From an uncultured Bacteroidales bacterium (GTDB lineage: Bacteria; Bacteroidota; Bacteroidia; Bacteroidales; Paludibacteraceae): a DNA stretch of 64,000 nucleotides. The stretch spans positions 5,611 through 69,610 of the forward strand of contig CAMNCW010000026.1 in NCBI GenBank assembly GCA_946534715.1. Direction: 5' to 3'. The notes beneath the pieces are model-generated. The model saw only the letters and a program-made list of their open reading frames with translations, was not told the origin of the DNA and ran no database searches. The first letter of the stretch is position 1, and each line of letters opens with the position of its first letter. This document shows positions 6,258-55,924 of the stretch, one piece after another. A program made the translations under genes and the position numbers.

Positions 6258-6305
6258 CAAAAGTACAAAAAAATTTGCACATATGCAAAAAAAATAGTAT
6301 CTTTG
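6258..6305. promoter_or_regulatory. 48-bp divergent promoter cassette: -7 box (minus) / palindromic double -33 / -7 box (plus)
   Basis: caaaagta (reverse complement TActTTTG) at 6258-6265, palindrome TTTGCACATATGCAAA at 6274-6289, TAtcTTTG at 6298-6305. Spacings are 20-21 nt on both strands. Confidence 0.7.
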
Positions 6306-14127: not shown

Positions 14128-16182
14128 ATGAAAAGCGAATTGATTGTTGACGTACAGCCTGCTGAAATCGCTATCGCCCTGACTGAGGATGACCGTTTAC
14201 AAGAGGTCTCGCGTGAGAAAAGAGATCAGGATAATTTCTCTGTGGGAAATATCTATTACGGTCGTGTGAAGAAGGTCATGCCGGCGTTAAATGCGGCTTT
14301 CGTGGATGTAGGTCATGAGAAAGAAGCTTTTCTGCATTATTTGGATTTAGGTTCTCAGTATCGAACGCTGCAATCGTACGTTACCAAAGCCGTTTCTGAC
14401 CGACGCCGTGTGCCTGTCATCACGAAGACACAACGGCTTCCGGAAGTAGGCAAAGAGGGACAGATAGCTGATGTGCTGAAAGTGGGGGATCCTATTCTCG
14501 TGCAGGTCTCGAAAGAGCCGATTAACACTAAAGGACCGCGACTGACGGCTGAAATCTCTATCGCAGGAAGAAATATCGTCCTTATTCCTTTTGCAGACGG
14601 CGTTATGGTAAGCCAGAAAATTAAACGCGAGGCAGAACGCCAGCGTCTTAAACAACTGATGTTGTCTATCAAACCTGCGGGTTTCGGCATCATTGTTCGC
14701 ACTGTAGCAGAAGATAAACGTGTGGCTGAGTTGGACAACGAGCTGCGATTGTTGATTGAACGATGGGAAGAGACAATCAAGTCCCTTCAACAAAAAGAGC
14801 CGGTTAGTCTGGTCTCCGAGGAGATGGGACGAACTCTCGGTATCATCCGGGATGTCTTAAGTCCGGACTTTACTTCTATTCAGGTCAATGACAAGGACAT
14901 CTATAATGATGTGCGTCATTATCTGGAACTCATCGCTCCGGAAAGCGCCAAGATCGTCAAACTCTACCAGGATGCGCAACCTATTTTTGACCATTTCGAC
15001 ATCACCCGACAGATGAAAACGGGTCTCGGCAGAACGGTCGGTTTTAAACATGGAGGTTATCTCATTATTGATAAAACCGAAGCACTGTTCTCCATTGATG
15101 TCAATTCCGGCAGCAAAAAGATTTATGAGGACCAGGAGCAAAATGCGTTCCAGTTTAATATGCTGGCAGCTGACGAGTTAGTTCACCAACTTCGATTGCG
15201 TGATATTGGAGGCATTATCATCGTCGATTTTATTGACATGGATGATAAAGGCCACCAGCAGCAACTCTACGAGTATGTCCGCAAACTCATGGAACGGGAT
15301 CGTGCGAAACATAATGTGTTGCCACTTAGCAAATTCGGCTTGATGCAAATCACGCGTCAACGTGTAAGGCCTGCGGTAGAGGTAGATGTAACCGAGACTT
15401 GTCCTACCTGTATGGGAAAGGGGAAAATTCAGTCTTCTATTCTCTTTACAGACCAAATTGCCGATGAATGCGAGCACATGGTGGAGCATTATGGAAGGGG
15501 ACTGACATTGCATTTGCATCCGTATATTTACGCGTATGTAAACAAAGGATGGCTCTTCTCTCTCAAAGCCCAATGGAGGCGCAAGTTCGGTGTTCGTTTG
15601 ATTGAAAATCAATCGCTCGGTATGTTGGAAATGCGATTCTTTGATGAGAGCGGAAAACCGATTTCGCATCACCATGAGGAGCCGAAACAGGCACCGAAGA
15701 AAGAGGTTAAAGAGGTGAAAGAAGCTAAGGTGGAGCAACCAAAACAGGTGGAACAACCGAAGCAGGTAGAGCAACCCAAGCCGGTGGAAAAACCGAAGCA
15801 GGTAGAGCAACCCAAGCCGGTTGAGAAACCAAAACAGGTGGAACAACCGAAGCAGGTAGAGCAACCAAAGCCGGTGGAAAAACCGAAGCAGGTGGAGCAA
15901 CCAAAGCCGGTGGAAAAACCGAAGGAGGAAAAGCCCAAACAACCTGAGCAACCGAAGCCTGCAAAGAAAAAAGCGGCTAAGAAGAAAGAAGCCCCGAAGG
16001 ATGAGGCTCCGAAGAAAGAAACCCCGAAACAGGAAAAAACAAAAAAGGAGACTCCGAAAATTGATGCTCCTAAAAATCAGGAGCAGAACACACAAAGCGC
16101 AGAGACTCCTAAGAAAAAGCCAGCACGCAAAAAGAAAAAAACAGCAGAGAAACCTGCTGAGAATAATGCAGAAAAGAACTAA
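14128..16182 (+). CDS. rng: Ribonuclease E/G family (RNase G-like) with a 165-aa K/P/E/Q-rich C-terminal extension
   Basis: S1 domain (GNIYYGRVKKVMPALNAAFVDVG), the catalytic core DVNSG and a CPxC zinc link (CPTCMGKG). The tail is (VEQPKQ)n plus a Lys-rich end. Confidence 0.9.
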   Translation: MKSELIVDVQPAEIAIALTEDDRLQEVSREKRDQDNFSVGNIYYGRVKKVMPALNAAFVDVGHEKEAFLHYLDLGSQYRTLQSYVTKAVSDRRRVPVITKTQRLPEVGKEGQIADVLKVGDPILVQVSKEPINTKGPRLTAEISIAGRNIVLIPFADGVMVSQKIKREAERQRLKQLMLSIKPAGFGIIVRTVAEDKRVAELDNELRLLIERWEETIKSLQQKEPVSLVSEEMGRTLGIIRDVLSPDFTSIQVNDKDIYNDVRHYLELIAPESAKIVKLYQDAQPIFDHFDITRQMKTGLGRTVGFKHGGYLIIDKTEALFSIDVNSGSKKIYEDQEQNAFQFNMLAADELVHQLRLRDIGGIIIVDFIDMDDKGHQQQLYEYVRKLMERDRAKHNVLPLSKFGLMQITRQRVRPAVEVDVTETCPTCMGKGKIQSSILFTDQIADECEHMVEHYGRGLTLHLHPYIYAYVNKGWLFSLKAQWRRKFGVRLIENQSLGMLEMRFFDESGKPISHHHEEPKQAPKKEVKEVKEAKVEQPKQVEQPKQVEQPKPVEKPKQVEQPKPVEKPKQVEQPKQVEQPKPVEKPKQVEQPKPVEKPKEEKPKQPEQPKPAKKKAAKKKEAPKDEAPKKETPKQEKTKKETPKIDAPKNQEQNTQSAETPKKKPARKKKKTAEKPAENNAEKN
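15730..15927 (+). repeat. 18-nt tandem repeat x11 (GTGGARCAACCNAARCMG)
   Basis: In-frame units encoding V-E-[QK]-P-K-[QPE] in the RNase G tail. Confidence 0.95.
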
Positions 16183-19680: not shown

Positions 19681-19728
19681 CAAAGTTACAAAAAAATTTG
19701 CATATATGCAAAAAAAGTAGTAATTTTG
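19681..19728. promoter_or_regulatory. 48-bp divergent promoter cassette (second copy)
   Basis: caaagtta (reverse complement TAacTTTG), palindrome TTTGCATATATGCAAA at 19697-19712, TAatTTTG at 19721-19728. 42/48 identical to 6258-6305. Confidence 0.7.
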
Positions 19729-19749: not shown

Positions 19750-21213
19750 ATGAAAATTCAGTTTCTCGGAGCTACCGGTGAAGTGACGGGTAGCAAACAT
19801 CTTATCACTACCGATTCGGGGCACACTATTTTGTTGGACTGTGGCATGTACCAGGGTAAAGGCATGGAAACCGATGCTGCGAACAGGGATTTGGGCTTTG
19901 ATCCGAAGACCTTGGACTGTGTGGTGCTTTCGCACGCGCACATTGATCATTCCGGGCTGATTCCTTATATTGTCAAGTTGGGTTTCAAGGGTGATATCTA
20001 TTGTACGCCGGCTACGAGGGATCTTTGCTCGCTCATGTTGACCGACACGGCTTTTATTCAGGAGCAGGATGTCAGAACCTACAACAAGAAGATCGACCGC
20101 CAGCATCCGCATAAGGAGAAAGGCAGGAAATACAAGGTCGAACCGCTCTATGACCAGAAGGATGTGCAAAAGGCGATGAAGCATTTTGTAACCTATAGTT
20201 ACGACCGTCGCTTCCGGCTTTTTGATGATGTGTTGCTGACTTTCACCAACTCCGGTCACATGCTCGGCGGTGCAATCTGCTCGCTGGAAGTGTATGAAAA
20301 ATCTACTCCCTCCCTTGTGGGGAGGGCTGGGGAGGGGTTCCGCTGGAAGCGCCTCACTTACACCGGCGATGTCGGACGTTTGCATTGCCATATCCTGCCT
20401 CCGCCCCAACTCTTCCCGCAATGCGATTATCTGATCTGCGAATCGACCTATGGCGATAAACTGCACGAAGAGCAGTTAGTGACCGAAGAGCAGCTCCTCG
20501 GCGTGGTGGAAGATACATGCGTCTATCGAAAAGGCCAGTTGCTCATTCCTTCTTTCTCCGTCGGCAGAACCCAGGAAATCGTTTATGTCCTCAACCAACT
20601 CTATAATGACGGACGGCTCCCGCATATTCCGGTCTATGTCGATTCGCCGATGAGTACCAACGCAACACAGATCTTCAGAATGTACCCGGAAGAGTTGTCA
20701 GACGAAGTGAGAGACACCATGCAGTTTGACCCCGATCCCTTTGGATTTAACACGCTGCGTTACATCACAGACATAAACGAATCGAAGATGCTGAACCATA
20801 AAGACGAACCCTGTATCATCATTTCCGCGAGCGGCATGTTGGAGGCGGGGAGAATAAAACACCATGTGGCGAACCATATTTCCGACCCGAGGTGTACGAT
20901 TTTGATTGTCGGTTACTGCGAACCTTCCACACTCGGCGCACGGATTCAGCAACCGGGATTGCAATGGATCTCTATTTTCGGACTTGACAGACGTATCAAA
21001 GCGCAGATCACCAAGATCGAAGGTTTCTCGGGGCATGGTGATTATAAAGAGATGATTGATTATTTCACTCGCTCTTTAGATGTATCACAAGTGCAGCGCA
21101 CGTTTGTGGTGCATGGAGAGCCGCAAGCGGCAGAGGCGTATAAGGGACATTTGACCGACGCGGGCTTCAAAAATATATGCATTCCCGCCAAAGGAGAGCT
21201 CGTAGAACTATAA
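19750..21213 (+). CDS. MBL-fold metallo-hydrolase of the beta-CASP RNA-metabolising type
   Basis: HAHIDHSG motif, beta-CASP and RNA-specificity C-terminal region; 487 aa. Confidence 0.85.
   Translation: MKIQFLGATGEVTGSKHLITTDSGHTILLDCGMYQGKGMETDAANRDLGFDPKTLDCVVLSHAHIDHSGLIPYIVKLGFKGDIYCTPATRDLCSLMLTDTAFIQEQDVRTYNKKIDRQHPHKEKGRKYKVEPLYDQKDVQKAMKHFVTYSYDRRFRLFDDVLLTFTNSGHMLGGAICSLEVYEKSTPSLVGRAGEGFRWKRLTYTGDVGRLHCHILPPPQLFPQCDYLICESTYGDKLHEEQLVTEEQLLGVVEDTCVYRKGQLLIPSFSVGRTQEIVYVLNQLYNDGRLPHIPVYVDSPMSTNATQIFRMYPEELSDEVRDTMQFDPDPFGFNTLRYITDINESKMLNHKDEPCIIISASGMLEAGRIKHHVANHISDPRCTILIVGYCEPSTLGARIQQPGLQWISIFGLDRRIKAQITKIEGFSGHGDYKEMIDYFTRSLDVSQVQRTFVVHGEPQAAEAYKGHLTDAGFKNICIPAKGELVEL
20306..20339 (+). 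repeat. G/C-rich hairpin mini-element, in frame (translated PSLVGRAGEGF)
   Basis: ctccctccc-ttgt-ggggaggg ctggggaggggtt within the MBL CDS. Confidence 0.85.
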
Positions 21214-21271
21214 AAATGCACTAAAATGCAAAAAAACTGCAAAATTATTTGCGTATGTCAAAAAAAAGCAG

Positions 21272-21279
21272 TACCTTTG
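21272..21279 (+). promoter_or_regulatory. -7 box TAccTTTG upstream of tRNA-Pro
   Basis: aaaaaaaagcagTAccTTTGcaccc, about 74 nt upstream of the mature tRNA 5' end. Confidence 0.6.
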
Positions 21280-22530: not shown

Positions 22531-22632
22531 GGGTCTTTGTCCAGTTCATCTCGCCGTCCTGATAAAACGCGATAAATCGCTTTTTTTTTCAAAAAAAATG
22601 CCCGAACGCTTGCATATGTGCAAAATTTGTCG

Positions 22633-23639: not shown

Positions 23640-24746
23640 ATGAGACACAAATTTATCATCTTATTTTCATTCTTTTTCTGCGTTGGCTGCGGGGCAACGG
23701 AAGTGCCTGAACCGCAACCCAAACCCGTTGCGTCTTATTCGTTATGCAACGCCAATGCTACTGCCGAAACGCAGCAGTTATGGTCGTTGTTGTGCAGCCA
23801 ATACGGTAAGAACGCCCTTTCCGGCGTGGTGGCTAATATAGATTGGAACGCGCGCGAGGCGGAGAACGTCTATCAATGGACGGGTCATTACCCGGCGATC
23901 AATGTGTTTGACTTTATCAATATCCATGCGTCCAAAGACGTGAATAAAAACGGCTGGCTCGATTACAGCGACATGACGCCGGTGGAGGAATGGCACCAAG
24001 CTGGCGGCATAGTAGGTTGCATGTGGCATTGGCAGGTGAAGGCGAACAACGGGACGAACTATACCTGTTCGCCGGGCGTCGAACCCGGGCAGACGTCTTT
24101 CGATCCCGCAAAGGTCAATGACCCCTCTTCGGCGGAATACAAACAAATGATCCACGATATTGACCAGGTAGCAGGGTATTTGAAGAAAATGCAGAAACGC
24201 GGAATAGCGGTTCTATGGCGTCCGTTGCACGAAGCATCGGGCAATACGTCGGAGTTTGCCGGCGGCGGTGCTTGGTTCTGGTGGGGTGCCAAAGGCGCAG
24301 AAGCATACAAAGCGCTATGGCGGTTCATGTACGACCGAATGGTTAATTATCACAAACTCAACAACCTCATCTGGATATGGAACTCACAGATGAACGACTA
24401 TGATTGGTACCCCGGCGACGACGTAGTGGATATCGTGGGACGCGATAACTACTATGCGCTCCAATACCCCTTGGCGAAAGAGTTCAAAGCCTTACAGGAG
24501 CAGTTCCCCAACAAACTGATCACGCTGGCGGAATGCGGCAACGGCGACGAAGTGGAGATGTCGCTATGGAGCGATATATGGTCGGAAGGCAGCCGCTGGA
24601 GCTGGTTCATGACGTGGTACGATTATAACTACAACGCCGGCACTTCCGACGAACATCAGTTTGCCGGCGAAGCATGGTGGAAAGATGCGTTCAACAGCGG
24701 CGTGGTGCTCGATCGGGATGAGGTGAAAGGACTGATGAGGAGGTGA
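23640..24746 (+). CDS. GH26 endo-beta-1,4-mannanase, lipoprotein
   Basis: Lipobox FFFCVGC. GH26 signature VLWRPLHEASG...GGAWFWWG. Confidence 0.85.
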   Translation: MRHKFIILFSFFFCVGCGATEVPEPQPKPVASYSLCNANATAETQQLWSLLCSQYGKNALSGVVANIDWNAREAENVYQWTGHYPAINVFDFINIHASKDVNKNGWLDYSDMTPVEEWHQAGGIVGCMWHWQVKANNGTNYTCSPGVEPGQTSFDPAKVNDPSSAEYKQMIHDIDQVAGYLKKMQKRGIAVLWRPLHEASGNTSEFAGGGAWFWWGAKGAEAYKALWRFMYDRMVNYHKLNNLIWIWNSQMNDYDWYPGDDVVDIVGRDNYYALQYPLAKEFKALQEQFPNKLITLAECGNGDEVEMSLWSDIWSEGSRWSWFMTWYDYNYNAGTSDEHQFAGEAWWKDAFNSGVVLDRDEVKGLMRR

Positions 24747-24747
24747 T

Positions 24748-24866
24748 AACCCCTCCTGACCTCCCCCACAAGGGGAGGAGAAAGGATAGTCATGAAGAGA
24801 AACAAATATATACTATTTTTACTTGCATTCTTAGCCCTCCCTTGTGGGGAGGGTTGTGGTGGGGTT
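24748..24866. mobile_element. 119-bp inverted-repeat cassette (two G/C hairpin elements in opposite orientation) straddling a start codon
   Basis: Left arm aacccctcctgacctcccccacaaggggaggag (24748-24780), right arm ccctcccttgtggggagggttgtggtggggtt (24835-24866). ATG 24792 lies between them. The right arm is translated as LPCGEGCGGV. Confidence 0.7.
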
Positions 24867-25964
24867 CTTCTCGCCACAGAGCGGACGATCCTGCTCGGTC
24901 CGAAGACGATTGGCAAAGCATGGAAAGATAACATTGTGCTGGAGGCTCGTCATTTCAAGGATGTGCAGCCGGGCGATGTGCTGACGGTGTATAACGACCG
25001 CGCCAAAGGTACGGCGCAAGGGGCTTTTCAGAACCCTCAGACATGGCAAGGCGTAGCCCCCGAATACGGTTATTTCGGTATCAACGGTCCTTTCCGAATG
25101 ACGATGACGGAAGATATATTAAGGATCGCGCGCACGCACGGAATAGCGATCGGCGGACACGACTACCGCATTCTGCGGGTGACTGTTTCCGACAGTGCGG
25201 ACTACCGCGAGACGATCGTATGGAACGGTCCGGCGGTGGTGATGAAAAGCGATTGGAGCGCGAGCGCCGAGATAGAGGGACGCTGTTTCGCGACCTTGCA
25301 GGAGGGCGATGGCCTGCGGTTGCATGTCTCCAAAGTGCAGGAAGGCGCTGCTGCCAAACTGATGGACTTCACATGGAATGCCTTGGATCCCTCGGTCGAT
25401 GGCATGCCGGTGGGGGAGAATGGTATCACATGGTATATCCATGACCGTGCACCGCTACTGAAACTACAATTGGCAGGCACAGGTTCGAACACTGCCATGC
25501 GGGTAGGAGGCAAAGGCTATCGGTTAGATCAGATCGGCATCGTGCAGTTTGTAGGCGAAGTGAGCGAAGACCTCTCCTCCGCGCAGCGGGCACCGAAGGA
25601 ATATACCTTGCAGCCTGGAGAACTCTTTCATGGCGAGAAATATTTCCCTGCCGATTGGAGCGGAAACCTAACCATCAATGCCGCGCCTTTCCAGAAATGT
25701 ACAGAGAATGATGTGCTGCTGATTTCTTATCGCTTGGATCCTGCTGCCAAAGCTGCCGGCGTGACACCGCAACTGTCGCTCCGCAACACCCGCACGTGGG
25801 GAGAACTGACCGGCGCTGCAGAGCCTGTTTGGTATCCTTTGGACGGCAATGACGTGGTCTATCTGTTTGATGCGGTCGCCTTGGATGCGGTCAAAACGCG
25901 CGGGTTCATCCTCACCGGAGTAGGATTTACGCTCACTAAAATAGAACTAATATCTGCACAATAA
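24792..25964 (+). CDS. Hypothetical secreted or lipoprotein with three ~110-130-aa modules (putative glycan-binding)
   Basis: Each module ends in a G.GY.L..I..V-like strand (GGHDYRILRVTV, GGKGYRLDQIGIV, TGVGFTLTKIELI), as in the modules of ORFs 31019 and 36582. Confidence 0.6.
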   Translation: MKRNKYILFLLAFLALPCGEGCGGVLLATERTILLGPKTIGKAWKDNIVLEARHFKDVQPGDVLTVYNDRAKGTAQGAFQNPQTWQGVAPEYGYFGINGPFRMTMTEDILRIARTHGIAIGGHDYRILRVTVSDSADYRETIVWNGPAVVMKSDWSASAEIEGRCFATLQEGDGLRLHVSKVQEGAAAKLMDFTWNALDPSVDGMPVGENGITWYIHDRAPLLKLQLAGTGSNTAMRVGGKGYRLDQIGIVQFVGEVSEDLSSAQRAPKEYTLQPGELFHGEKYFPADWSGNLTINAAPFQKCTENDVLLISYRLDPAAKAAGVTPQLSLRNTRTWGELTGAAEPVWYPLDGNDVVYLFDAVALDAVKTRGFILTGVGFTLTKIELISAQ

Positions 25965-25965
25965 T

Positions 25966-28900
25966 ATGAAAAACAAATTCTTTGTACATCGTACATTGTT
26001 CCATCGTACATTTATTGTACTTTGTACTTTGTCCCTTTGTTCCTTCCTGTCGGCGCAGACGACGGTCACAGGAAAGGTCATCGACGGTGCGAATAACGAA
26101 TCCGCGATAGGGGCAACTGTGATCGTAGCCGGCACGCAGGTCGGCACGGTGACTGATTTCGACGGGCATTTCTCCATTGAAGTGCCGGACGGTAAGTTTA
26201 TCCTGCAATTCTCCATGGTGGGGTACAAGACGCAGGTGGTGAATATCCGCGGCAAGAGCCATGTGGAGGTCACTATGCAGGAAGATACGCAGGTGATGGA
26301 GGAAGTGGTGGTCGTTGGCTACGGAGTGATGAAAAAACGCGACCTGTCGGGCTCTGTCAGCCAGATCAAGAGCGAAGATATCATGTCGGGCGGCACGCTG
26401 AATACGGCGCAGAGCCTGGAGGGCAAGATCGCGGGTGTTGATGTCAAATCGTCCGACGGAGCCCCGGGTAGCGGCGTGAGCATCACCGTCCGCGGTGCTA
26501 ACTCGTTCACCACCAGTTCGCAACCGCTCTATATAGTCGATGGTGTACCGTTCGGCACAGACCCCAACGGCGTTCCTTCCTCCGGTGCAAACGACGGACA
26601 GAACACGTCGCAGAACCCCTTGTCGATGATCAACCCCAATGATATCGAGAAGATAGAGGTGCTCAAGGATGCTTCGGCAACGGCTATCTACGGTTCGCGC
26701 GGTGCGAATGGCGTGGTGATCATCACGACACGCAAAGGGCAGGAAGGCAGACCCCGTGTGGAGCTGAATGTCAAAGGCGGCATGCAGCAGATCGCCAACC
26801 GCGTGCAGATGCTGGATGCGTACCACTATGCGCTCTATCAGAACGAAGCGGCGGCGAACAGCCGTACATACGAAGGTGGCACGCAGCGTGACCCTTATCG
26901 GGGCGAATGGGATTATCCTTACGTCGGCTCGGGGTATGTGTATAACCAAGGTAAGTATAACCCTTCTCCCGAAGATTTCCTGAACCCCGGTCTGCGCACG
27001 GACAAGTACGGCAACGTGGACGAAGTGGCAGGCACCGATTGGCAACGCGAGATATACCAATTGGGTTATTCGCAGGAGTATAACGCGTCAGTCTCCGGCG
27101 GCACGGAGAAGGGCTATTACGCTTTCTCCGGCTCCTATGCCGACCAGCGGGGTATCATCAAGAACACGGGATACAAGCGTTATGGTCTTTCCATTAACAC
27201 GGCTTGGCATATCACCAAATGGCTCGAGATCGGTACGAGCCAGCATTTCACAAACGCTACGACAGATTTTCAGCGGACGAATTCCGAGAACACGGGTATC
27301 ATCCGTTCGGCGCTCATTTTCCCGCCTACCTACGGTCCGCACCAGCAGACGGAGCAGTTGGACGAACTGAACTGGCTGGCTGCTAATCCGCTCAATTATG
27401 TCAACGGCGCGAAAGACGAACTGAAACAAATCTCGTGGTTCTCGTCCTCGTTTGTGGAGTTTACGATTCAGCCCTGGCTCAAGTTACGCCAGAATCTCGG
27501 TTTAGGCTATAACGACGGTCATCGTGCAACGTATTACGACCGTCATACGCAGGAAGGCAAATCGCCTTTTAACGGCAAAGCGGGTAGGGCATCGAATATA
27601 TGGAAGAGCCTCACCGCCGAGACGCTGCTGACCTTTGACCATAAGTTCAATGCGAATCATAGCATCAATGCCGTGCTCGGTGTGACCTTTGAACGTGGTA
27701 TAGGCGAGTCCGAATCAATGACCGCTACTAATTTTCCGAACGACCTGACGAAGGATGCGAACATGGCGTTAGCACTCGACAAGGGAGTGTTACGCAGTTC
27801 GCAGACTCAACAGTCATTAGAGTCTTATTTAGCGCGTATGAACTACACGCTCATGGGACGCTATATCTTCACCGCCAGCGCGCGTGTCGATGGCTCGTCC
27901 TCGTTTGCCCCCAAACATAAATGGGCGCCGTTCTTCTCCGGTGCGTTTGCATGGCGCATGATCGACGAGAATTGGATGCAGGACCAGCAGGTGCTCTCCA
28001 ACTGGAAATGGCGTGTCTCATTCGGCGAGACGGGAAACCAAGCGATCGGCGCCTACCGTACGCTCACGGTGCTCGATGCGGCGAACTACCCCTATGCCGG
28101 CACGTTAGAATCCGGCGCGGCGATGATCGATTGGAGAGGACCGACGAATCCCGACCTTCGATGGGAGACTACCGATCAGGCGGATGCGGGGCTGGACATC
28201 GGTTTTGCCAATAACCGCGTCAACATCACGTTGGATTATTATTGGAAGAAAACACGTGACTTGCTCCAGAACGTGACGATCCCTTCCTCAACGGGTTTCA
28301 GCCAGATGATGATCAACTCCGGTTTTGTCATTAACCAGGGTTTCGAACTGACCCTCAATGCCGTAGCAATCGACATGGCGGATTGGAAATGGCAGCTGGA
28401 TGCCAATTTCTCTTTAAACCGCAACCGCATCGGCGGACTCAAAGGCGATCAGTACGCCACCGCCCTATGGTCGAAAGCGGATCAGGTCTTCCTGCAACGC
28501 AACGGATGTCCTATCGGTACGCTCTACGGCTATCGGGAAGAGGGCATTGATCCCGCTACCGGCGAGATCGTCTATTCCGACCTCAACGGCGACGGTTCTG
28601 TCACCGAAGCCGACCGCACGATCATCGGCAATACGAACCCCGATTTCACGTATTCGCTCACCTCGCGCCTGTCATGGAAAGGGCTTTCGCTCAACTTTAT
28701 GCTCCAAGGCTCGCACGGCAACGATATATTCAATTATAACCTCACGGATATCACGATGTCCAATATCGGTAATATTACACAACAAGCATACGACCACCGT
28801 TGGACGGCGGCTAACCCCGACGGCGCACTATGGCCGAAACCCACAGCGGGATATAACAGGACATGGCTCGTTTCGAACCGATATGTGGAAGATGGTTCGT

Positions 28901-29130
28901 TCCTCAAAATCAAATATATCACCCTCAGTTACGATTGGAATAACCCTGCCAAATGGCTGCAGAAGATCAATTTCAATTTCACCGTCAATAACGTCTATAC
29001 TTTCACGCGTTATTCATGGTTTGACCCCGATGTGAATGCCGCCGGCACGAATCCTTCCTGCCCGGGCGTGGATAGTTATTCCTATCCCGCTGCACGGACG
29101 TATAACTTAGGTATCAACTTTGTATTCTAA
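25966..29130 (+). CDS. susC: SusC/RagA-family TonB-dependent outer-membrane transporter
   Basis: 1054 aa. CarboxypepD_reg-like TVTGKVIDGANNESAIGATVIV, plug domain and C-terminal ...YNLGINFVF. Confidence 0.95.
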   Translation: MKNKFFVHRTLFHRTFIVLCTLSLCSFLSAQTTVTGKVIDGANNESAIGATVIVAGTQVGTVTDFDGHFSIEVPDGKFILQFSMVGYKTQVVNIRGKSHVEVTMQEDTQVMEEVVVVGYGVMKKRDLSGSVSQIKSEDIMSGGTLNTAQSLEGKIAGVDVKSSDGAPGSGVSITVRGANSFTTSSQPLYIVDGVPFGTDPNGVPSSGANDGQNTSQNPLSMINPNDIEKIEVLKDASATAIYGSRGANGVVIITTRKGQEGRPRVELNVKGGMQQIANRVQMLDAYHYALYQNEAAANSRTYEGGTQRDPYRGEWDYPYVGSGYVYNQGKYNPSPEDFLNPGLRTDKYGNVDEVAGTDWQREIYQLGYSQEYNASVSGGTEKGYYAFSGSYADQRGIIKNTGYKRYGLSINTAWHITKWLEIGTSQHFTNATTDFQRTNSENTGIIRSALIFPPTYGPHQQTEQLDELNWLAANPLNYVNGAKDELKQISWFSSSFVEFTIQPWLKLRQNLGLGYNDGHRATYYDRHTQEGKSPFNGKAGRASNIWKSLTAETLLTFDHKFNANHSINAVLGVTFERGIGESESMTATNFPNDLTKDANMALALDKGVLRSSQTQQSLESYLARMNYTLMGRYIFTASARVDGSSSFAPKHKWAPFFSGAFAWRMIDENWMQDQQVLSNWKWRVSFGETGNQAIGAYRTLTVLDAANYPYAGTLESGAAMIDWRGPTNPDLRWETTDQADAGLDIGFANNRVNITLDYYWKKTRDLLQNVTIPSSTGFSQMMINSGFVINQGFELTLNAVAIDMADWKWQLDANFSLNRNRIGGLKGDQYATALWSKADQVFLQRNGCPIGTLYGYREEGIDPATGEIVYSDLNGDGSVTEADRTIIGNTNPDFTYSLTSRLSWKGLSLNFMLQGSHGNDIFNYNLTDITMSNIGNITQQAYDHRWTAANPDGALWPKPTAGYNRTWLVSNRYVEDGSFLKIKYITLSYDWNNPAKWLQKINFNFTVNNVYTFTRYSWFDPDVNAAGTNPSCPGVDSYSYPAARTYNLGINFVF
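25981..26047. repeat. Imperfect heptamer array (TTGTAC/TTGTCC type, ~9 units) encoding the SusC signal peptide
   Basis: tttgtac atcgtac attgttc ... ttgtact ttgtact ttgtccc tttgttc gives FVHRTLFHRTFIVLCTLSLCSF. Shares LCTLSLC with ORF 9918. Confidence 0.75.
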
Positions 29131-29131
29131 T

Positions 29132-29247
29132 AACCCCACCTGACCTCCCCACAAGGGAGGGAATAAAAACACTACAGTTATGAAAGTAAAAAAATATATC
29201 ACCCGACTATTAATCATCCTCCCCTTGTGGGGAGGCTTGGTGGGGTT
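29132..29247. mobile_element. 116-bp inverted-repeat cassette (second copy) straddling the susD start codon
   Basis: Left arm aaccccacctgacctccccacaagggaggg (29132-29161), right arm cctccccttgtggggaggcttggtggggtt (29218-29247). ATG 29180 lies between them. The right arm is translated as LPLWGGLVGL. Confidence 0.7.
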
Positions 29248-30979
29248 ATTTCCCTCCTGTTCCTGGATCCAGGAGAACCCGGACAGTCTTATCACGCCCG
29301 AGAAACTCGGAGACAGCAAGGAGGCTTGTGACCAACTTGTCACCGGCGTCTATTCCAAGTGGATATACGACATGTTCTGCTGGGGCTATTTCCCGCGGAT
29401 GTTAGAGTTTGACGCGGACTATATCTCCGGTCCCGATTGGTTATTCGGTACGTTTGGCGCCGGCAATTTCCAAGGCGAGCCGGACTTGGTGGATGCGTTA
29501 TGGAAAGGATGTTACGGGCTCATCGGACGCGCCAACACTGCCGAGCAGTATATCTCCGCGATGAAGAATATCACCGACAGGGAGAAGAACAATGCCCTTG
29601 GCGAACTGCGTTTCCAGAAGGCTTTTGCGTACTTCCTCCTTGTCCGCGCCTACGGAGAGGTACCTATCCAAGTACCAATCACCAATAACCAATCCCCTGT
29701 CTCCCCCTCTGAGAGGGGGGCGGGGGGGGGCTCTCCCCGCAAACCCGTCACGGAGGTCTATTCCCATATCATCTCCCTGCTCGAAGGCTGCACCACGATG
29801 CTCTATAAAAACACGGATGATGCCTATCGTCCCGGGCATGTGTCTGCGGGCTCTGCGGCTGGTTTGTTAGCCAAAGTCTATGCTACCGAAGCGTCTTACG
29901 CTATGCCTGCCGGCACCTCCCTCACGATCCGTTCCGGAGCGGCTTATACCACCGATGGATCCGGCAACAAACGCTATGCACCTTTGCAGGCATTCCATTT
30001 GACCAAACAGACCGTCCCCGGCTACGAGTCCCTCGATCCGATGCAGCTCTACCAGCAGGCTGCCGATTGGTGCTCGGAACTGTTAGCCGGTACGTACGGT
30101 GACTATCAGCTCTCGGAATACGACCAACTTTGGCTCAAAGCCAACGCCAATGCCTCGGAGTTCCTGTTCTCCGTCAATACCGTCTCCGGCGATGCTACCT
30201 ATAAGACCTCGGTGCATACCCAGTATGAGGGCTACATGACCGCTACGGGTTCGGACTTCATTCAGTCCGGTGGCTGGACCGGCTGCACGCGTCATTGGTA
30301 TGACCTCTTCGACCATGACGACTACCGCATCACCAAAGGTGTACGTCACCGCTGGCGCAACTACACGCAGCGTGAGTCTAACTCCGGCTTCTATTATCCC
30401 TATGACGATGAATATACGATCATGGCGACCGGCAGAAACCTCGCCGGTGATTGGATCAAAGACCCTTCCGGCATCTATGCCGACGGCGTCAATTATTACT
30501 ATTCCGCCGATGCGCAATGTCTCGCTTTTACTACCAAATACGAGGACGTGACCGATAATGCCATTGATAATGCTGATGCCAACTGGCCTTTCCTCCGTTT
30601 GGCGGATGTAATACTGATCTACGCCGAGGCGCTCAATGAACTGGATCATCCCTCCGATGCGCTTGCGCAACTGAATAAGGTACGTCTGCGCGCCAATGCA
30701 GACCGTGCTTCCATGGGCGGCAAGAGAGCGTTGGCTACCAAAGAGGCACGGCGGTCTGCCATCATCGAAGAACGCGCCAAAGAGTTAGCATGCGAAGCAG
30801 ACCGCCGATGGGATCTGATCCGCTGGGGCGTTTATCTCGACGCGATGAATGCCTTGGGAGGAACGGACGACTCCGGCGTCAATAAATCCCGCACCGAACG
30901 CAATCTCCTTTTCCCGCTGCCCGCACAGGAGATCAACACCAACCCCGAGATCAACTCCAATAACCCCGGGTGGAATTAA
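29180..30979 (+). CDS. susD: SusD/RagB-family nutrient-binding outer-membrane lipoprotein
   Basis: Lipobox ..LFPSCSWIQENPDS, and TPR-like SusD core (FLLVRAYGEVP, LRLADVILIYAEALNE). Confidence 0.9.
   Translation: MKVKKYITRLLIILPLWGGLVGLFPSCSWIQENPDSLITPEKLGDSKEACDQLVTGVYSKWIYDMFCWGYFPRMLEFDADYISGPDWLFGTFGAGNFQGEPDLVDALWKGCYGLIGRANTAEQYISAMKNITDREKNNALGELRFQKAFAYFLLVRAYGEVPIQVPITNNQSPVSPSERGAGGGSPRKPVTEVYSHIISLLEGCTTMLYKNTDDAYRPGHVSAGSAAGLLAKVYATEASYAMPAGTSLTIRSGAAYTTDGSGNKRYAPLQAFHLTKQTVPGYESLDPMQLYQQAADWCSELLAGTYGDYQLSEYDQLWLKANANASEFLFSVNTVSGDATYKTSVHTQYEGYMTATGSDFIQSGGWTGCTRHWYDLFDHDDYRITKGVRHRWRNYTQRESNSGFYYPYDDEYTIMATGRNLAGDWIKDPSGIYADGVNYYYSADAQCLAFTTKYEDVTDNAIDNADANWPFLRLADVILIYAEALNELDHPSDALAQLNKVRLRANADRASMGGKRALATKEARRSAIIEERAKELACEADRRWDLIRWGVYLDAMNALGGTDDSGVNKSRTERNLLFPLPAQEINTNPEINSNNPGWN
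29675..29738 (+). repeat. CCAATNN heptamers x3 fused to a G/C hairpin element containing a G6-C-G9 tract, in frame in susD
   Basis: ccaatca ccaataa ccaatcc then cctgtctccccctctgagaggggggcgggggggggctctcccc. Translated ITNNQSPVSPSERGAGGGSPR. Confidence 0.85.
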
Positions 30980-31018: not shown

Positions 31019-32371
31019 ATGAAAAAACTTATCTCCATCTTTTATCTCGTCGGCATAACTGTCAGTACGATGACTGCCGCTGAGAAAGTGGTCTGGACAG
31101 GTAACGAACCTATCTCTTGGAACACGGAGGTCTATGCCGGTACGCAGTTTGAAACACCTTCCGGCATCTTTGCAGGGCTGCAAAAAGACCATATTATCCG
31201 TGTTACCGTAGTGCCCGGCATGGATAAACCGCAGTATGTCATGACCTACAAAGCCGGTGATTCCTGGTCGTGGACGGATCTCGCTATCACGATCAAAGAC
31301 AGTATCCTGTCTTATACAGTAGAGGCTGATGCTATCGCCACGGAGATAGCCGACCGCGGTCTCATCTTCCGCGGACAGGGCTATAACATCACCCAAATAA
31401 CGGTTGATGATCTGCTGCCTGACTCGGTGCCGTCTGTTGATCCGCAGCCCGGAGACACCACCATCGTCCCCGTAGATCCTTCACTCCCCGGCACGTATGA
31501 GAAGATCCTGTGGCAGGGCGACTCGGCTATCTCGTGGAACGCGGAGGCGTATGCCGGAGGTGAGTTCGAGACCGCAGCAGACCTCTTCGCCGGCCTTCAA
31601 CTCAACGATACGATCCGCGTCTATACCGCCGAAGCAATTGAGGGCGCGCAATATAACCTCACCTATAAAGCCGGTGCTTCATGGGAGTGGGCGGCGCTGA
31701 ATACCACAGTAGAGAACGGCGTGATCCGTTATGTGGTGGAGTCGTCCGCTATTGCGCAAGAGATTGCCGAACGAGGCATCATCGTCCGCGGACAGGGCTA
31801 TCACATGACCTGTATCACCGTGACCGCGCATCCGCAGGACACGATCACGCCTGTTGACCCGCAACCTACCGACAGCATCGATCTCACCGGACTCGTGGAG
31901 ACCGTCCTTTGGACAGGCAATGCCGCCATCTCCTGGAATAGCGAAGAATATGCCGGAGACAAACTCGACACCCGTTCGATCAGCGAGACCCTATTTGCCG
32001 GGCTCCAAGAGAACGACATCATCTGCGTCACTTATGCCGAAGCGGCAGCAGACGCGCAGTTCGGTCTTCAGTACAAAGCCGGAGATAACTGGTCGTGGAC
32101 CAATCTCAACTATCAACTCTCAACTATCAACTCTCAACTTCTCTACCGTGTCGCTTCCGACGAGATGGCAATGCTCATCGCCGACCGCGGATTAGTGATC
32201 ACCGGTATCAAATACCACGCTACCAAAATCAGCCTCTTCACTCCCGAAACAGAAGGGGTAGAGCATCTACAAAAGGACAATGCACCGGCTACCAAGTTCA
32301 TTGAAGACGGTCAACTCTATATCAAGTACAAAGGAACAAAATACAATGTACAAGGAGCAAAGCTCCGTTAA
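31019..32371 (+). CDS. Secreted surface protein with three ~110-aa tandem modules and a conserved C-terminal tail
   Basis: Modules at about aa 21-128, 160-268 and 295-410 (W.G....ISWN.E.YAG..FET....FAGLQ..D.I.V...RGQGY..T.ITV). Tail FIEDGQLYIKYKGTKYNVQGAKLR. Confidence 0.7.
   Translation: MKKLISIFYLVGITVSTMTAAEKVVWTGNEPISWNTEVYAGTQFETPSGIFAGLQKDHIIRVTVVPGMDKPQYVMTYKAGDSWSWTDLAITIKDSILSYTVEADAIATEIADRGLIFRGQGYNITQITVDDLLPDSVPSVDPQPGDTTIVPVDPSLPGTYEKILWQGDSAISWNAEAYAGGEFETAADLFAGLQLNDTIRVYTAEAIEGAQYNLTYKAGASWEWAALNTTVENGVIRYVVESSAIAQEIAERGIIVRGQGYHMTCITVTAHPQDTITPVDPQPTDSIDLTGLVETVLWTGNAAISWNSEEYAGDKLDTRSISETLFAGLQENDIICVTYAEAAADAQFGLQYKAGDNWSWTNLNYQLSTINSQLLYRVASDEMAMLIADRGLVITGIKYHATKISLFTPETEGVEHLQKDNAPATKFIEDGQLYIKYKGTKYNVQGAKLR
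32104..32138 (+). repeat. Heptamer array TMTCAAC x5 (perfect 14-nt period) inside module 3
   Basis: tctcaac tatcaac tctcaac tatcaac tctcaac, translated NYQLSTINSQL. It replaces the segment seen in modules 1 and 2. Confidence 0.9.
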
Positions 32372-32399: not shown

Positions 32400-34154
32400 A
32401 TGAAAAAAATCTTTCTATTTTTAAGTGTAGTGCTGGTATCCCTGGCAATGCAGGCAACTGTGCAAAAAGCAGATTGGAACTTTAGCGGAATGACCGAGTG
32501 GGACTCAGGAACAGCGTCTTTTAATACAGAAACAGGAGTCGTTACGGCAAATCAATTTCGTGGCGTAGGTAACTGGGGATGGTTGGAAAAAGGAGACTAC
32601 GACACACTCGTGGTTGAAGTAGCAGATCATGATTATCCTGTATTAGTGAAGGTAAAAACCATCAATGATGGTGAAGCCGATCAAACAGAGAATTATGTAG
32701 ATTTTCAGAAGGAAATATCTGCCAAGCAAAATTGCCTTGTTCTTGATTTGACTTCATCAAAAGATATTATAAAGTATATTGAGTTGGATAACTGGTCAAA
32801 GCATGATGGTGCAACTTTTACGATTAAGAGTATCTATGCGTTAAAGACTTCCGGAATTAAAATCACACGTCCTCTTTGGAACGGGGAAAATGCCTTTGGT
32901 AATTGGGAACATAGCATTTCTGTTGATCCGTTTGCTCGCGTCTATGAATATGATGAGATGGTGATAAAATATACGAAAGGAAGTGATCCGCAGTGCCAGA
33001 TTAAAATCAGAGGAACCAACGCGTTTTTGGATTTTGTAGGCGACTATGTGGATGTAAGCGGAGAGACGCAAGCTTCCTTCCTTTTAAGTGCGGCGGATGT
33101 TGCTGCAATTAAAAGTAACGGTTTCTACTTAAATGGTAAAAACATGACCATCACAGATGTTCTAATAGTAAGCCACAGAACTTTGGCAAGTGAGGAAAAG
33201 GTAGTTGGAGGATGGAATAATCACTGTGAGATTGATGCAGCAGGCATGTTGGCTGATTTGCAGATAGGCAATAATATCTGCGTGTGCGTTACGAACATTG
33301 CTTCGGGGGAATATCAGCGTGTCAGCCTTTACAGCGGTTGGAGTAATTCGGATCTTTTGGTTGGTTGTGAGCATTTCTTTGGAGCAGAGACGGCATCAGG
33401 AGATAGTCCACTTATCGTACGTTTCCCCGTTACTGGCAGTATGAAACAACAGTTAGGATCTCACAATTTGCTTGTTCGTGGCTGTTATTTCACTATGACA
33501 GATGTGTACGTCGAAGAAGGTACTCCTGTAGCCGAAACAGGTGTAAATGGATATCTTACAGTCTCTACTGCCGGCATGGCTACATTTATGCTACCTTTTA
33601 ATGTGCCCTCTTTGCCGTCCGGTGTTCAGGCTTACGAACTGACCAATGACGGTTCTGAGGAGATTGTGGCTACTGAAGTTAAGACGCTCGAAGCAGACAA
33701 ACCCGTGCTTATCGTCGCTGCCAAAGGCGAATATAAGTTCATTAGCGAAGAAGGTGCATCGGCTGATATCTCTGGGAAAACAGGTACATATACCAACGGC
33801 GCGCTCGTTGGAACTTACCATACGATCAACCCATTAGCGCAGACCACTGATGACAAATACAACTATCTGCTCCAAAACGGAAAGGACGGCGTGGCTTTCT
33901 ATCAAGTGTTGGACGATGAATGCTCTTTGGGCGCTTACCGCGCATACCTCAGTTGTGGCTATAATGCCAGCACGTCAAAACCAGGCATGCCTCCGCGGAA
34001 GTCCATGCGTATTGTTTTCCGCACCGATGAAACAACAGGCCTTGTGGACGTACAAGGGTACAATGTACAAGGTACCAAGTTCATCAAGGACGGACAACTC
34101 TATATCAAGTACAAAGGGACAAAGTACAATGTACAAGGGCAGAAAGTGCGTTAA
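32400..34154 (+). CDS. Secreted multi-module surface protein with the same C-terminal tail
   Basis: 584 aa. Type I signal peptide. Modules end in ..TIKSIYAL / ..MTITDVLIV / ..FTMTDVYV. Tail FIKDGQLYIKYKGTKYNVQGQKVR. Confidence 0.7.
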   Translation: MKKIFLFLSVVLVSLAMQATVQKADWNFSGMTEWDSGTASFNTETGVVTANQFRGVGNWGWLEKGDYDTLVVEVADHDYPVLVKVKTINDGEADQTENYVDFQKEISAKQNCLVLDLTSSKDIIKYIELDNWSKHDGATFTIKSIYALKTSGIKITRPLWNGENAFGNWEHSISVDPFARVYEYDEMVIKYTKGSDPQCQIKIRGTNAFLDFVGDYVDVSGETQASFLLSAADVAAIKSNGFYLNGKNMTITDVLIVSHRTLASEEKVVGGWNNHCEIDAAGMLADLQIGNNICVCVTNIASGEYQRVSLYSGWSNSDLLVGCEHFFGAETASGDSPLIVRFPVTGSMKQQLGSHNLLVRGCYFTMTDVYVEEGTPVAETGVNGYLTVSTAGMATFMLPFNVPSLPSGVQAYELTNDGSEEIVATEVKTLEADKPVLIVAAKGEYKFISEEGASADISGKTGTYTNGALVGTYHTINPLAQTTDDKYNYLLQNGKDGVAFYQVLDDECSLGAYRAYLSCGYNASTSKPGMPPRKSMRIVFRTDETTGLVDVQGYNVQGTKFIKDGQLYIKYKGTKYNVQGQKVR

Positions 34155-36507: not shown

Positions 36508-36573
36508 TAATTGTGATCTCGTGATCTCGTGATCTCGAAATTTTTAATTTATAATTTATAATTTTTAATTTAA
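36494..36573. repeat. Composite spacer: TAATTGN x3, GTGATCTC x3 (perfect), AATTTWT x5
   Basis: Fills almost the whole GH36 to next-gene spacer and includes the GH36 stop (36505-36507). The octamer recurs at 46419-46458. Confidence 0.9.
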
Positions 36574-36581: not shown

Positions 36582-37451
36582 ATGAAAAAGTTTTATTCAT
36601 TATTCATGGCTTTATGCCTTTCCGCATTGATGCTCAATGCCAAGACTGTAGAAACAACCCTTTGGGAAGGGGAGTACACCAATGGCGTAGAAATCAACTC
36701 TGCCACAATCGCTACCTTCAAAGCCGGAGACATCCTCCGTGTCTATGTAACAGTGCCGGAAAATGGCGCTAACTTCAAGATCGTCTATAAAGGCGCACCA
36801 GATTGGTCTGAGACCACGATCCCTTCCATTAACGACCAGTGGCCGTGGGTGAATGGCGGCGAGACCTACAAGGAGTTTGCTCTTACGGAGGAAGACCTCA
36901 CCGCTTTTGCCGGCAAGAACATCTACGTCTATAAAGGCGAGTACTCCACTATCAGCAAAGTGTCGCTTATCTCCGAAGAGAAAGACATGAAGGAGACTAC
37001 CCTTTGGGAAGGGGAATCTACCGGCGACATCGAACTCAATGCGGCTACCGTAGCTACCTTCAAAGCCAATGATATCCTCCGCGTCTATGTAGCGGCATCG
37101 GCTGAGGGCGGAAACTTCAAACTGGTCTATAAAGGTGAGCCCGATTGGAAAGAGAAAGCTATTCCTTCTGTCAACAGCAGTTGGCCGTGGATCAATGGCG
37201 GTGAAGACCGCTTTGAGGTCACTTTCACAGCTGCGGATATAGCGGCATTGGCATCCATGAACATCTATCTCGCTAACGGTGGCCGTTCGATCGTCAAAGT
37301 GTCGCTCCTTACCGAGGACCAAGGCGGTTCTACAGGCATTGACAATACATCCGCCAATTTTGGCGGATCGCAGAAGATCCTTCGTGACGGTCAACTCTAT
37401 ATCCTGTACAACGGCACCAAGTACAATGTACACGGTCAGGTAATTAAATGA
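36582..37451 (+). CDS. Secreted surface protein with two ~108-aa tandem modules and the conserved tail
   Basis: TTLWEGE....E(I/L)N.AT(I/V)ATFKA.DILRVYV....G.NFK(I/L)VYKG.PDW appears twice. Tail ILRDGQLYILYNGTKYNVHGQVIK. Confidence 0.7.
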   Translation: MKKFYSLFMALCLSALMLNAKTVETTLWEGEYTNGVEINSATIATFKAGDILRVYVTVPENGANFKIVYKGAPDWSETTIPSINDQWPWVNGGETYKEFALTEEDLTAFAGKNIYVYKGEYSTISKVSLISEEKDMKETTLWEGESTGDIELNAATVATFKANDILRVYVAASAEGGNFKLVYKGEPDWKEKAIPSVNSSWPWINGGEDRFEVTFTAADIAALASMNIYLANGGRSIVKVSLLTEDQGGSTGIDNTSANFGGSQKILRDGQLYILYNGTKYNVHGQVIK

Positions 37452-37460: not shown

Positions 37461-37495
37461 TAAATCTCAAATGTCAAATCTCAAATCTCAAATAT
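37461..37495 (+). repeat. Heptamer array CAAATNT x5 containing the GH26 start codon
   Basis: taaatct caaATGt caaatct caaatct caaatat gives MSNLKSQIL. Confidence 0.9.
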
Positions 37496-43716: not shown

Positions 43717-43724
43717 CAAAGGTA
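43717..43724 (-). promoter_or_regulatory. Orphan -7 box (reverse complement TAccTTTG) pointing into a gene-free region
   Basis: Context aaaaaaaagcagTAccTTTGcatc is nearly identical to the tRNA-Pro promoter context at 21262-21282. No credible ORF downstream on the minus strand. Confidence 0.45.
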
Positions 43725-43828
43725 CTGCTTTTTTTTGACATGACCAAATCTTTTTATATGTTTTATAGCATATTTCAGCTAAAAATATCTAATTGTGCGA
43801 AAAAAGCGCATTCCGGAGCACTTAAATG

Positions 43829-44377: not shown

Positions 44378-44382
44378 GGTTA

Positions 44383-44410
44383 TTGATAATTGACAATTGA
44401 TAATTGATGA
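44383..44410. repeat. Heptamer array TTGAYAA x4 (identical 28-mer to 1007-1034)
   Basis: ttgataa ttgacaa ttgataa ttgatga fills the 33-nt spacer between two minus-strand genes. Confidence 0.9.
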
Positions 44411-46418: not shown

Positions 46419-46458
46419 CGTGATCTCGTGATCTCGTGATCTCGTCATTTCGTGATTA
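46419..46458. repeat. Octamer array CGTGATCT x5 (three perfect units)
   Basis: cgtgatct cgtgatct cgtgatct cgtcattt cgtgatta. Same unit as 36513-36536. Overlaps the prfC stop. Confidence 0.9.
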
Positions 46459-50463: not shown

Positions 50464-50546
50464 CAAAAAAAATCTCACATATGCAAGCGCGCGCGTATTT
50501 TTCCTTATTTTTTATGAATATATTTGCATATATCAAAAATTCTTTG

Positions 50547-50554
50547 TATCTTTG
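50547..50554 (+). promoter_or_regulatory. -7 box TAtcTTTG
   Basis: Preceded by TTTGCATATATCAAA. ATG at 50573. Confidence 0.55.
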
Positions 50555-51411: not shown

Positions 51412-51413
51412 AT

Positions 51414-51447: not shown

Positions 51448-51471
51448 AACGGGAAAGATAGAAATAGAAAG

Positions 51472-55905: not shown

Positions 55906-55924
55906 TTTTTTTCAAAATTTTTTG

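Follow-up and report, generated by a model that had tools for sequence, protein, structure and literature searches.

The 64-kb stretch of DNA analysed here (hereafter the window), from an uncultured Bacteroidales bacterium of the family Paludibacteraceae (contig CAMNCW010000026.1), carries a 119-bp cassette at 24748–24866, between a GH26 gene and a gene encoding a 390-aa protein. We consider it probable that this cassette is composed of two separate ~35-nt repeat units, of a triplex type resembling the BoxC/PIT elements of Escherichia coli, placed tail-outwards around a translation start that belongs to the host. A first-pass annotation had read the segment as a portable module, bounded by terminal inverted repeats in the manner of a miniature inverted-repeat transposable element (MITE), which supplied the start codon and n-region of the 390-aa protein. 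The two inverted copies it described, at 24748–24780 and 24835–24866 and 54 nt apart, were borne out in coordinates and sequence, and the arms proved to be oppositely oriented members of a dispersed hairpin-repeat family represented six times in the window. A single mobile piece was not supported, because the arms occur separately, the interiors of different pairs are unrelated and the units are mostly solo. Our conclusion is that the arms are separable and that the start codon, with the n-region, comes from host sequence.

The GH26 open reading frame (ORF; Pfam PF02156) extends from 23613 or 23640 to 24746, its stop codon TGA occupying 24744–24746. The 390-aa ORF (24792–25964), which had no match in Pfam and PDB searches, opens with the ATG at 24792 and has the N-terminus MKRNKYILFLLAFLALPCGEGCGGVLLATERT. 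Downstream of the GH26 stop the sequence reads TAACCCCTCC-TGA-CCTCCCC-CACAA-GGGGAGG-AG, within which the reverse-oriented (R) copy is, on the + strand, AACCCCTCC-TGA-CCTCCCC-CACAA-GGGGAGG (24748–24778, or to 24780). The forward (F) copy at 24835–24866 reads CCCTCCC-TTGTG-GGGAGGG-TTGT-GGTGGGG-TT. Complementarity between the arms, first estimated at ~80%, was measured as 26/34 (76%); repeat finding recovered a 16-nt core at 88% and a 19-mer core had three window matches at ≤3 mismatches, versus none in 100 shuffles.

Delimited by the family consensus, the R unit spans 24745–24781 with its G-rich strand on the minus strand (profile E = 1e-7; predicted hairpin −14.1 kcal/mol; perfect mirror tail). 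Read on the + strand, it comprises the tag (A)TAA (24746–24749), a C-tail CCCCTCC (24750–24756), the loop TGA (24757–24759), the stem CCTCCCC (24760–24766), the loop CACAA (24767–24771) and the stem GGGGAGG (24772–24778). As raw sequence the R copy does begin one base past the GH26 stop, as had been proposed, but by the consensus its (A)TAA/TTAT tag makes the unit overlap that stop. The F unit (24834–24869, + strand; E = 1e-8; predicted hairpin −18.1 kcal/mol) consists of a C stem CCCTCCC (24835–24841), the loop TTGTG (24842–24846), a G stem GGGAGGG (24847–24853), the loop TTGT (24854–24857) and a mirror stem GGTGGGG (24858–24864), and is translated in frame within the 390-aa ORF as (A)LPCGEGCGGV. 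Between the two units lies the host interior (24782–24833, + strand), outside the repeat, with an A-rich leader, the ATG (24792–24794) and the n-/h-region codons MKRNKYILFLLAFLA.

Alignment of the units revealed a shared anatomy of ~35 nt: a pyrimidine stem, a TTGT(G) loop, a purine stem, a loop of 2–4 nt, a second purine stem and, usually, a TTAT tag. All six window units have perfect stems of 6–7 bp and loops of TTGT or TTGTG, and their second purine stem is a mirror of the first, not a direct copy. This symmetry was examined in 185 copies among the matches listed from a genome pattern scan (one genome per species; loci L006–L125; counts from its lists are lower bounds), 120 of which had an asymmetric stem. 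A mirror fitted better in 70 of these and a direct copy in 8, with 42 ties; perfect mirrors numbered 89/120, compared with a mean of 59.9 (maximum 70) when tails were shuffled among copies. Stem and tail also covaried, GGGGGAGGA occurring with AGGAGGGGGG and GGGGAAGGG with GGGAAGGGGG. An unbiased finder, specifying a perfect 7-bp pyrimidine/purine hairpin followed by a mirror tail with ≤1 mismatch, returned eight window sites, whereas all 30 Markov simulations gave zero. The eight were five of the six family copies, two units of a second subfamily and an A/T homopolymer site (22571–22598; T7/A7 stems) that is not a unit of the family. Window units had 0–1 mismatches per seven triads. Four runs of three or more G were present in the copy at 20308 only, so a G-quadruplex does not characterise the family.

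A profile of the unit identified exactly six copies in the window (E = 1e-7 to 1e-9). Besides the R and F units described above, these included a sister pair at the SusC/SusD junction, whose arms are 85% complementary and again separated by 54 nt. Its R unit (29128–29163, − strand) lies directly 3' of the SusC stop TAA (29128–29130), reading TAA-TAACCCCACC-TGA-CCTCCCC-ACAA-GGGAGGG. Its F unit (29216–29250, + strand), which has a perfect mirror tail GGTGGGG, is in frame in the SusD ORF (29180–30979) and encodes (L)PLWGGLVGLF in the h-region, just ahead of the lipobox FPS|C. The remaining two copies are solo. One F unit (20305–20339, + strand) is read in frame in an MBL/beta-CASP gene (19750–21213; TPSLVGRAGEGF), occupying a loop that reads YEEGRWKR in insert-free orthologues, and one R unit (51411–51448, − strand) directly follows the stop TAA (51409–51411) of an OmpH/Skp-like gene, upstream of a Wzi-like gene with a signal peptide. 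The second subfamily has two units. That at 29703–29730 (+ strand; CCCCCTC-TGA-GAGGGGG-GCG-GGGGGGG) is translated in frame as SPSERGAGGG within mature SusD, where the loop usually reads PETETFDRNQ; that at 42763–42801 (no strand assigned; CCCCCTC-TGA-GAGGGGG plus tail) is in frame in ORF 42291–43301 (SPSERGQVG).

Five of the eight window units, both subfamilies counted, were in frame inside ORFs, and the three in-ORF F copies used all three reading frames. The G-rich strand contains no stop codon in any frame, the C-rich strand having TAA and TGA; an in-frame unit can therefore persist where the protein tolerates added residues. Each of the three post-stop R units in the window lies ahead of a gene with a signal peptide. 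At the units, Rfam returned no family when gathering scores were applied over the whole window, and in E-value mode, applied to 24700–24900 and to one Rhizobium copy, its only matches were generic hairpins scoring well under threshold; a sequence-string search of the literature yielded nothing relevant.

Syntenic loci carrying the AraC–GH26–unknown–SusC–SusD cluster were then compared, a check to which the first-pass annotation had itself pointed. Both arms of the cassette recurred in L001, L129, L130 and L131, but the cassette did not behave as one unit: both arms, the F arm only or neither arm were seen. At the GH26/390-aa junction, both arms were found in the window, L129 (R decayed, F intact), L130, L131, L001 (67 nt apart) and L255 (variant arms, ~150 nt), a diverged F arm only in L005, where the GH26 stop overlaps the ATG, and neither in L003. 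At the SusC/SusD junction, both were found in the window, L130 and L254 (~55 nt apart), F only in L005, which has 22 nt of interior in common with the window, and neither in L001, L003 and L128 (SusD 99% identical). The same N-terminus without flanking inverted repeats was found at the sister pair, where L005 has the SusD core and no upstream arm, but not at 24748–24866, where all inspected loci with this N-terminus (L001, L129, L130 and L131) have both arms.

The interiors of the two window pairs had no homology beyond a generic ATGAA..AAATATAT, and that of the pair in L223 was unrelated to both. The sequence AGTTATGAAA around the SusD ATG also occurs in the element-free locus L003. With both arms subtracted, the SusC/SusD pair leaves a stop codon, 17 nt, an ATG and 14 codons ahead of FPSC, which is an ordinary lipoprotein junction. 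Inspection of the sequence flanking the pairs gave no target-site duplication, and repeat finding and profile searches of the window gave no second copy of the cassette interior. No transposase was present among the window ORFs, nor a REP-associated tyrosine transposase (RAYT; REP, repetitive extragenic palindromic element) among those scanned across the 64 kb. In other Bacteroidales loci from metagenome-assembled genomes (MAGs), 20 of 21 units were solo, with no inverted partner within 220 nt, a count that applies to the loci examined and not genome-wide. A MITE whose terminal inverted repeats brought the start codon and n-region is thus contradicted by the separate arms in L005 and L128, the lack of target duplication and the unrepeated interior. 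The signal peptide together with the F segment was the best-conserved stretch between the window and L001 (88–92%, against a background of ~75%); as a sign of recent cassette transfer between lineages, this conservation is higher, but not strikingly so.

Several observations weigh against two independently placed units and speak for a doublet that is itself mobile, like a REPIN (a doublet of REP sequences) or a MITE, and that landed between genes so that its interior became a new start and n-region. For each of the only two F units embedded in signal peptides in the window, an R partner sits at the neighbouring stop, 54 nt away in both cases, with one pair at each junction of the polysaccharide-utilisation locus, and such matched pairing would be unlikely under independent placement (rough P 0.002–0.02). 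Pairs recur in L254, L001, L255 and L223, over gaps of ~55, 67 and ~150 nt in the first three (with variant arms in L255). At least 120 R-N50-80-F doublets were found in metagenomes, mostly on contigs of 60–70% GC, and are very common in other phyla, some having a conserved interior (two copies in L143). REP doublets are, moreover, the replicative unit in Pseudomonas (Bertels & Rainey 2011, PMC3116915). Clean empty sites, sought to define a target and duplication, were not found, so single-unit insertion was not directly observed. The triplex part of our interpretation also calls for restraint: the fold of the G-rich strand is deduced from sequence symmetry only, and a purine-motif triplex is a DNA structure and so is silent on any RNA role. 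A mobile doublet is nonetheless hard to reconcile with the unrelated interiors of the window and L223 pairs, with an F unit plus 22 nt of interior lacking R in L005, with a start-codon context that also occurs in an element-free locus, and with the absence of any remnant of an older start or signal peptide outside the arms. The lack of target duplication, the overwhelmingly solo units of this clade and the absence of a transposase from the window point the same way. We regard a mobile doublet as quite improbable, and two separate units flanking a host start remain our preferred interpretation.

The consequences of the F unit for the encoded protein were then assessed. ATG 24792 stands as the start codon, as had been annotated, because there is no in-frame start codon between 24866 and the conserved mature part. 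The F unit adds ~10 residues, which come after the h-region YILFLLAFLA and before the cleavage site LLA|TE, and hydropathy profiles showed a normal h-region with or without the element-coded stretch. In the 390-aa orthologues the mature part begins (A)(T/I/V)ERTILLGPKTIGKAW after highly varied signal peptides. LPCGEGCGGV was restricted to a subset of them, most being without any element, and other element variants (SLGEGWGEV, SFGEGCGEV, PSLLGGVGGG) were found in orthologue signal peptides. P0003, P0053 and P0064 (among P0001–P0120) have a common mature N-terminus behind unrelated signal peptides. For both SusD and the 390-aa protein, the block from the upstream stop to the cleavage site is swapped between lineages, the signal-peptide type not tracking mature identity; the KFSIFNFQFSILIVFAMS type, for instance, was found at 99, 77, 74 and 73% identity to the window SusD (P0241–P0360). 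The proposal that a module created or remodelled the N-terminus therefore survives in part, in that in-frame translation of the F arm contributes the residues LPCGEGCGGV, but not as the work of one mobile piece. The F-arm cysteines had further been pointed out as possible lipobox residues. They sit in LALP|C and GEG|C, neither of which matches [LVI][ASTVI][GAS]C; in P0009 and P0118 this position of the signal peptide is occupied by other element variants, with no Cys in the element stretch (SLGEGWGEV and PSLLGGVGGG, respectively); and orthologue signal peptides end AxA ahead of (T/I/V)ERT. The cysteines are not a lipobox.

We also considered whether the pair acts in expression. The Bacteroidetes promoter motif TTTG-N17-23-TAnnTTTG had 11 window matches (1.2 expected) and none between 22700 and 31000, which speaks against a transcription start within the cassette; sites elsewhere include 6258–6305, 19681–19728, 21248–21279, 43717–43748, 50523–50554 and 55921–55956, several forming back-to-back divergent pairs within a repeated promoter block of ~33–50 nt. 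No sigma-70 promoter was found in the cassette, the one weak match (24787–24814) being at the level of shuffled sequence. A terminator role is unlikely, as there is no U-tract and a terminator scan made no call at the arms. Another reading is that the pair has been kept by selection as an mRNA structure, in which an R:F stem would show or hide the start region in its loop and tune translation or processing between the cistrons. A long-range R:F stem of ~30 bp was predicted at −56.8 kcal/mol (z = −3.8), with −55.4 kcal/mol (z = −6.3) for the sister pair, and the predicted stem was kept in L001 and L129. An unrelated repeat family adopts the same inverted layout around the ATG of L003, and the signal-peptide genes that follow every post-stop R unit in the window would also suit such a role. 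Orthologues, however, work with one arm or none, and PIT elements are described as having no promoter or terminator activity in E. coli in work cited in PMC4666352. Since changes in the R arm (L129, L001, L130) are uncompensated in F and the spacing varies (52, 67 and ~150 nt), a selected RNA structure, predicted by folding, is possible but unproven, and as the explanation of the pair we judge it unlikely.

Over 9.9 kb the window and the same-species contig L130 were 95.8% identical, with only three scrambled segments, two of them at units (the MBL loop, which has a different repeat in L130, and the R-arm edge), although this is a small sample. The MBL loop (20287–20355; SLE[VI]YE to RWKR), whose empty form is YEEGRWKR, had more than 20 insert types among 120 orthologues of 85–95% identity, and the same-species contigs L130 and L131 had a CAAAC-type repeat there in place of the triplex unit. 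At the post-OmpH site (51409–51475) a unit was present in 10/10 contigs listed (L377–L386), and three alleles followed an identical OmpH/Skp-like protein: the window unit, a unit of another subfamily (AAGACCCCTCCAACTCCCCTAAAGGGGAGAG) and the window unit with a partial duplication (ATAACTTAACCCCA) ahead of it. The SusD loop (29690–29740) contained PETETFDRNQ, TPSLEGRVGEGF or NEQMVNEQMVN at the same place in orthologues. Repeats have been swapped at the MBL loop, the post-OmpH site and the SusC/SusD junction, and at the MBL loop and both junctions the change is a replacement, not a plain insertion or deletion. In E. coli, TM loci are significantly more rearranged between strains than control sites (Holder et al. 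2015, NAR 43:10126, PMC4666352). By analogy, swapping at these hot spots fits the instability reported there.

Inverted repeats around a short segment bearing an ATG could also be the recombination sites of a small invertible switch for the start codon. Bacteroidales do use invertible promoters. The interior nevertheless had one orientation in all seven contigs with the pair (L001, L129, L130, L131 and L254 among them), the segment is only 54 nt, the arms are imperfect and no recombinase gene is nearby; solo and intragenic copies would, in addition, be senseless as switch sites. Such a switch is so improbable that we give it hardly any weight beside two separate units.

Other repeats also occupy the spacers and coding regions of the window. 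Heptamer-like families fill intergenic spacers and also encode signal-peptide cores. They include an AATTGAN family (977–1031, 2442–2465, 5842–5910, 44367–44421), a GTGATCTC family (36505–36564, 46420–46471), a CAAATNT family (32101–32133, 36138–36170, 37462–37494, 38494–38540) and a TTGTAC/TTGTCC family (9946–9976, 25982–26045). The signal-peptide core VLCTLSLCTFAQ of ORF 9918 and SusC (25966) stems from a heptamer repeat, and the SusD signal peptide of the strain contig L128, KFSIFNFQFSILI, is coded for by the AATTGA family (90.6% over 32 nt). An O-methyltransferase-like ORF (5597–6238, − strand) reads an AATTGA repeat (5863–5896) in frame as CSIINSQLSILNYQ, between IGDA and DLVFIDADK, so heptamer repeats also enter enzymes. 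In the element-free locus L003 (5960–6070), GTGACAAAGTGACAAAGTACAACGTACAAA lies over the GH26 stop and a ~73% inverted copy in the signal-peptide-coding part, flanking the ATG, which is the layout of the R/F pair made from a different repeat family. The SusC signal-peptide repeat (26015–26040) was 96% reverse-complementary to 34111–34136, in DNA that codes for ...DGQLYIKYKGTKYNVQG, the conserved C-terminus of a set of three paralogous genes downstream (32294–32355, 34077–34138, 37374–37435). ORF 14128–16182, RNase E/G-like by synteny with L126, contains ~14 copies of an 18-nt tandem repeat (GGTGGAGCAACCAAAACA-like; 15693–15944) coding for a low-complexity tract of PKQVEQ type, and a run of CAT/CAC/GAC/GAT codons (His/Asp-rich) occupies 7–111.

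We further investigated the distribution of the triplex-type units. Paludibacteraceae-like Bacteroidales of the rumen are native hosts of the repeat family. The flanking genes have homologues in Paludibacteraceae MAGs, and units ending GGGGTTAT were found, among the matches listed, in Bacteroidales MAGs from the rumen or ruminant gut (RUG, UBA, sheep, roe deer). Very similar units with a TTGTG loop were also found, among the matches listed, in Rhizobiales, Planctomycetota, Chloroflexi, the candidate phyla radiation (CPR) and Coxiellaceae (L006–L125, L134–L253). Those of Rhizobiales have the C-stem first and lie directly after stop codons (Rhizobium: TAAGCCCCTCC...). One subfamily among the scan loci has a second small palindrome (TGGCCGGCAGGCCA) as loop 2 ahead of the mirror tail, and inverted doublets of ~150 nt were abundant among the scan matches listed. 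When viral contigs were scanned with the loop left free, its sequence was variable. The near-identity of TTGTG-loop units across phyla is partly due to the search pattern, but the design itself is shared.

Within the clade the units occupy two characteristic niches. First, the tag end regularly adjoins the upstream gene's stop codon or provides it. At least seven independent units (window plus 14 unrelated Bacteroidales loci) had their ATAA end 0–4 nt from an upstream stop codon or overlapping it, and L223 and L254 provided two more units at upstream stops. The TAA of the element itself terminates GH26 in L001 and L130 (ATGAGATAACCCCC), and in L255 the GH26 reading frame enters a variant unit and ends within the loop. 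Second, units are read in frame, the tolerated sites being the h/c regions of signal peptides and surface loops; in related MAGs, in-frame units in either orientation were found in RecF, MurI, a methyltransferase and TonB-dependent receptors.

Taken together, this suggests that the units arrive and turn over through the instability of such non-B DNA, by replication stalling, slippage or local recombination, and through allelic exchange between strains. They would not move by whole-cassette transposition, and any effect on expression, whether from a hairpin 3' of the stop or a possible long-range R:F stem, would be a by-product. A broader proposal, which we put forward tentatively and consider doubtful, is that non-B-DNA repeats of both kinds, triplex-type units and heptamer-like families, form a lineage-wide engine in rumen Paludibacteraceae that builds and swaps short coding cassettes at fixed hot spots. 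These cassettes would be signal peptides, from the upstream stop to the cleavage site, and surface loops, replaced between strains; the R/F doublet would then be a trace left either by a unit-level event or by selection favouring a paired structure. If this is true, secreted and outer-membrane proteins would diversify rapidly in their N-termini and loops.

Judged by its sequence design, the family is a putative triplex-type repeat of the BoxC/PIT kind that is new for Bacteroidales, and would extend to uncultured rumen members of this order a class of repeats so far described from Proteobacteria, among them E. coli. Its clade-specific seating at stop codons and its in-frame reading are its most interesting traits. 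For annotation they counsel caution, since odd G/P/C-rich stretches in signal peptides, and some stop codons, are repeat-derived in this clade. The data also lend independent support to the reported link between the motif and local genome instability, and the many-allele hot spots offer a system in which the reshaping of secreted-protein N-termini by short repeats can be studied.

Several known systems invite comparison. Rickettsia palindromic elements (mentioned in PMC1779305) are palindromic sequences of ~100–150 bp that insert in frame into genes and add tolerated peptides. The window units likewise form tolerated in-frame segments, but differ from them in sequence and phylum, and the Rickettsia elements have no triplex design. 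MITEs such as the Correia elements (PMC10969869) resemble the cassette in their inverted ends, ~120-bp size and intergenic position able to alter expression; the cassette differs in not being repeated whole, in having no target duplication, and in its host interior and separable arms. REP elements, together with their combinations, the bacterial interspersed mosaic elements (BIMEs) and REPINs, are closer. They too are short, palindromic and dispersed, lie mostly 3' of genes and occur in opposite-orientation pairs that can fold into larger structures; termini that give stop codons, intragenic REPs and inverted REP dimers are documented (Di Nocera 2013, PMC3733652). Unlike them, the window family lacks the GTAG/CGTC tag (its aligned tag is TTAT) and has a mirror purine tail, and unlike in REPINs doublets are not the rule in this clade and the window spacers are unrelated.

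The closest counterpart is the element first seen in E. coli as BoxC, later called PIT and then TM_ECO (PMC4666352, and Hoyne et al. 2000 as cited there), for which a class II purine-motif triplex fold was shown in vitro (PMC4666352). Its published consensus, CCCTCNCCC-N3-6-GGGNGAGGG-N3-GGGNGAGGG (PMC4666352), had no match in the window, so the window units represent a related family and not TM_ECO itself. Both have a C-rich stem, a loop of 3–6 nt, a G-rich stem, a loop of ~3 nt and then another G-rich stem, and by mirror symmetry the window units are compatible with the G.G-C, A.A-T and T.A-T triads. Both are ~35 nt long and multi-copy, with some inverted pairs and with loci rearranged between strains, and the E. 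coli type B unit CCCTCTCCCTGTGGGAGAGGGCCGGGGTGAGGGC is near-identical to the window unit CCCTCCCTTGTGGGGAGGGCTGGGGAGGGGTT, including a TGTG-type loop. They differ in stem length (7 nt in the window, CCCTCCC or CCTCCCC, against the 9 nt of TM_ECO), in host (Bacteroidota here, Proteobacteria for the reported TM_ECO) and in the TTAT tag by which the window family meets stop codons. All 23 TM_ECO copies of E. coli K-12 are intergenic, five sites having two inverted units (PMC4666352), whereas most units in the window are read in frame within genes.

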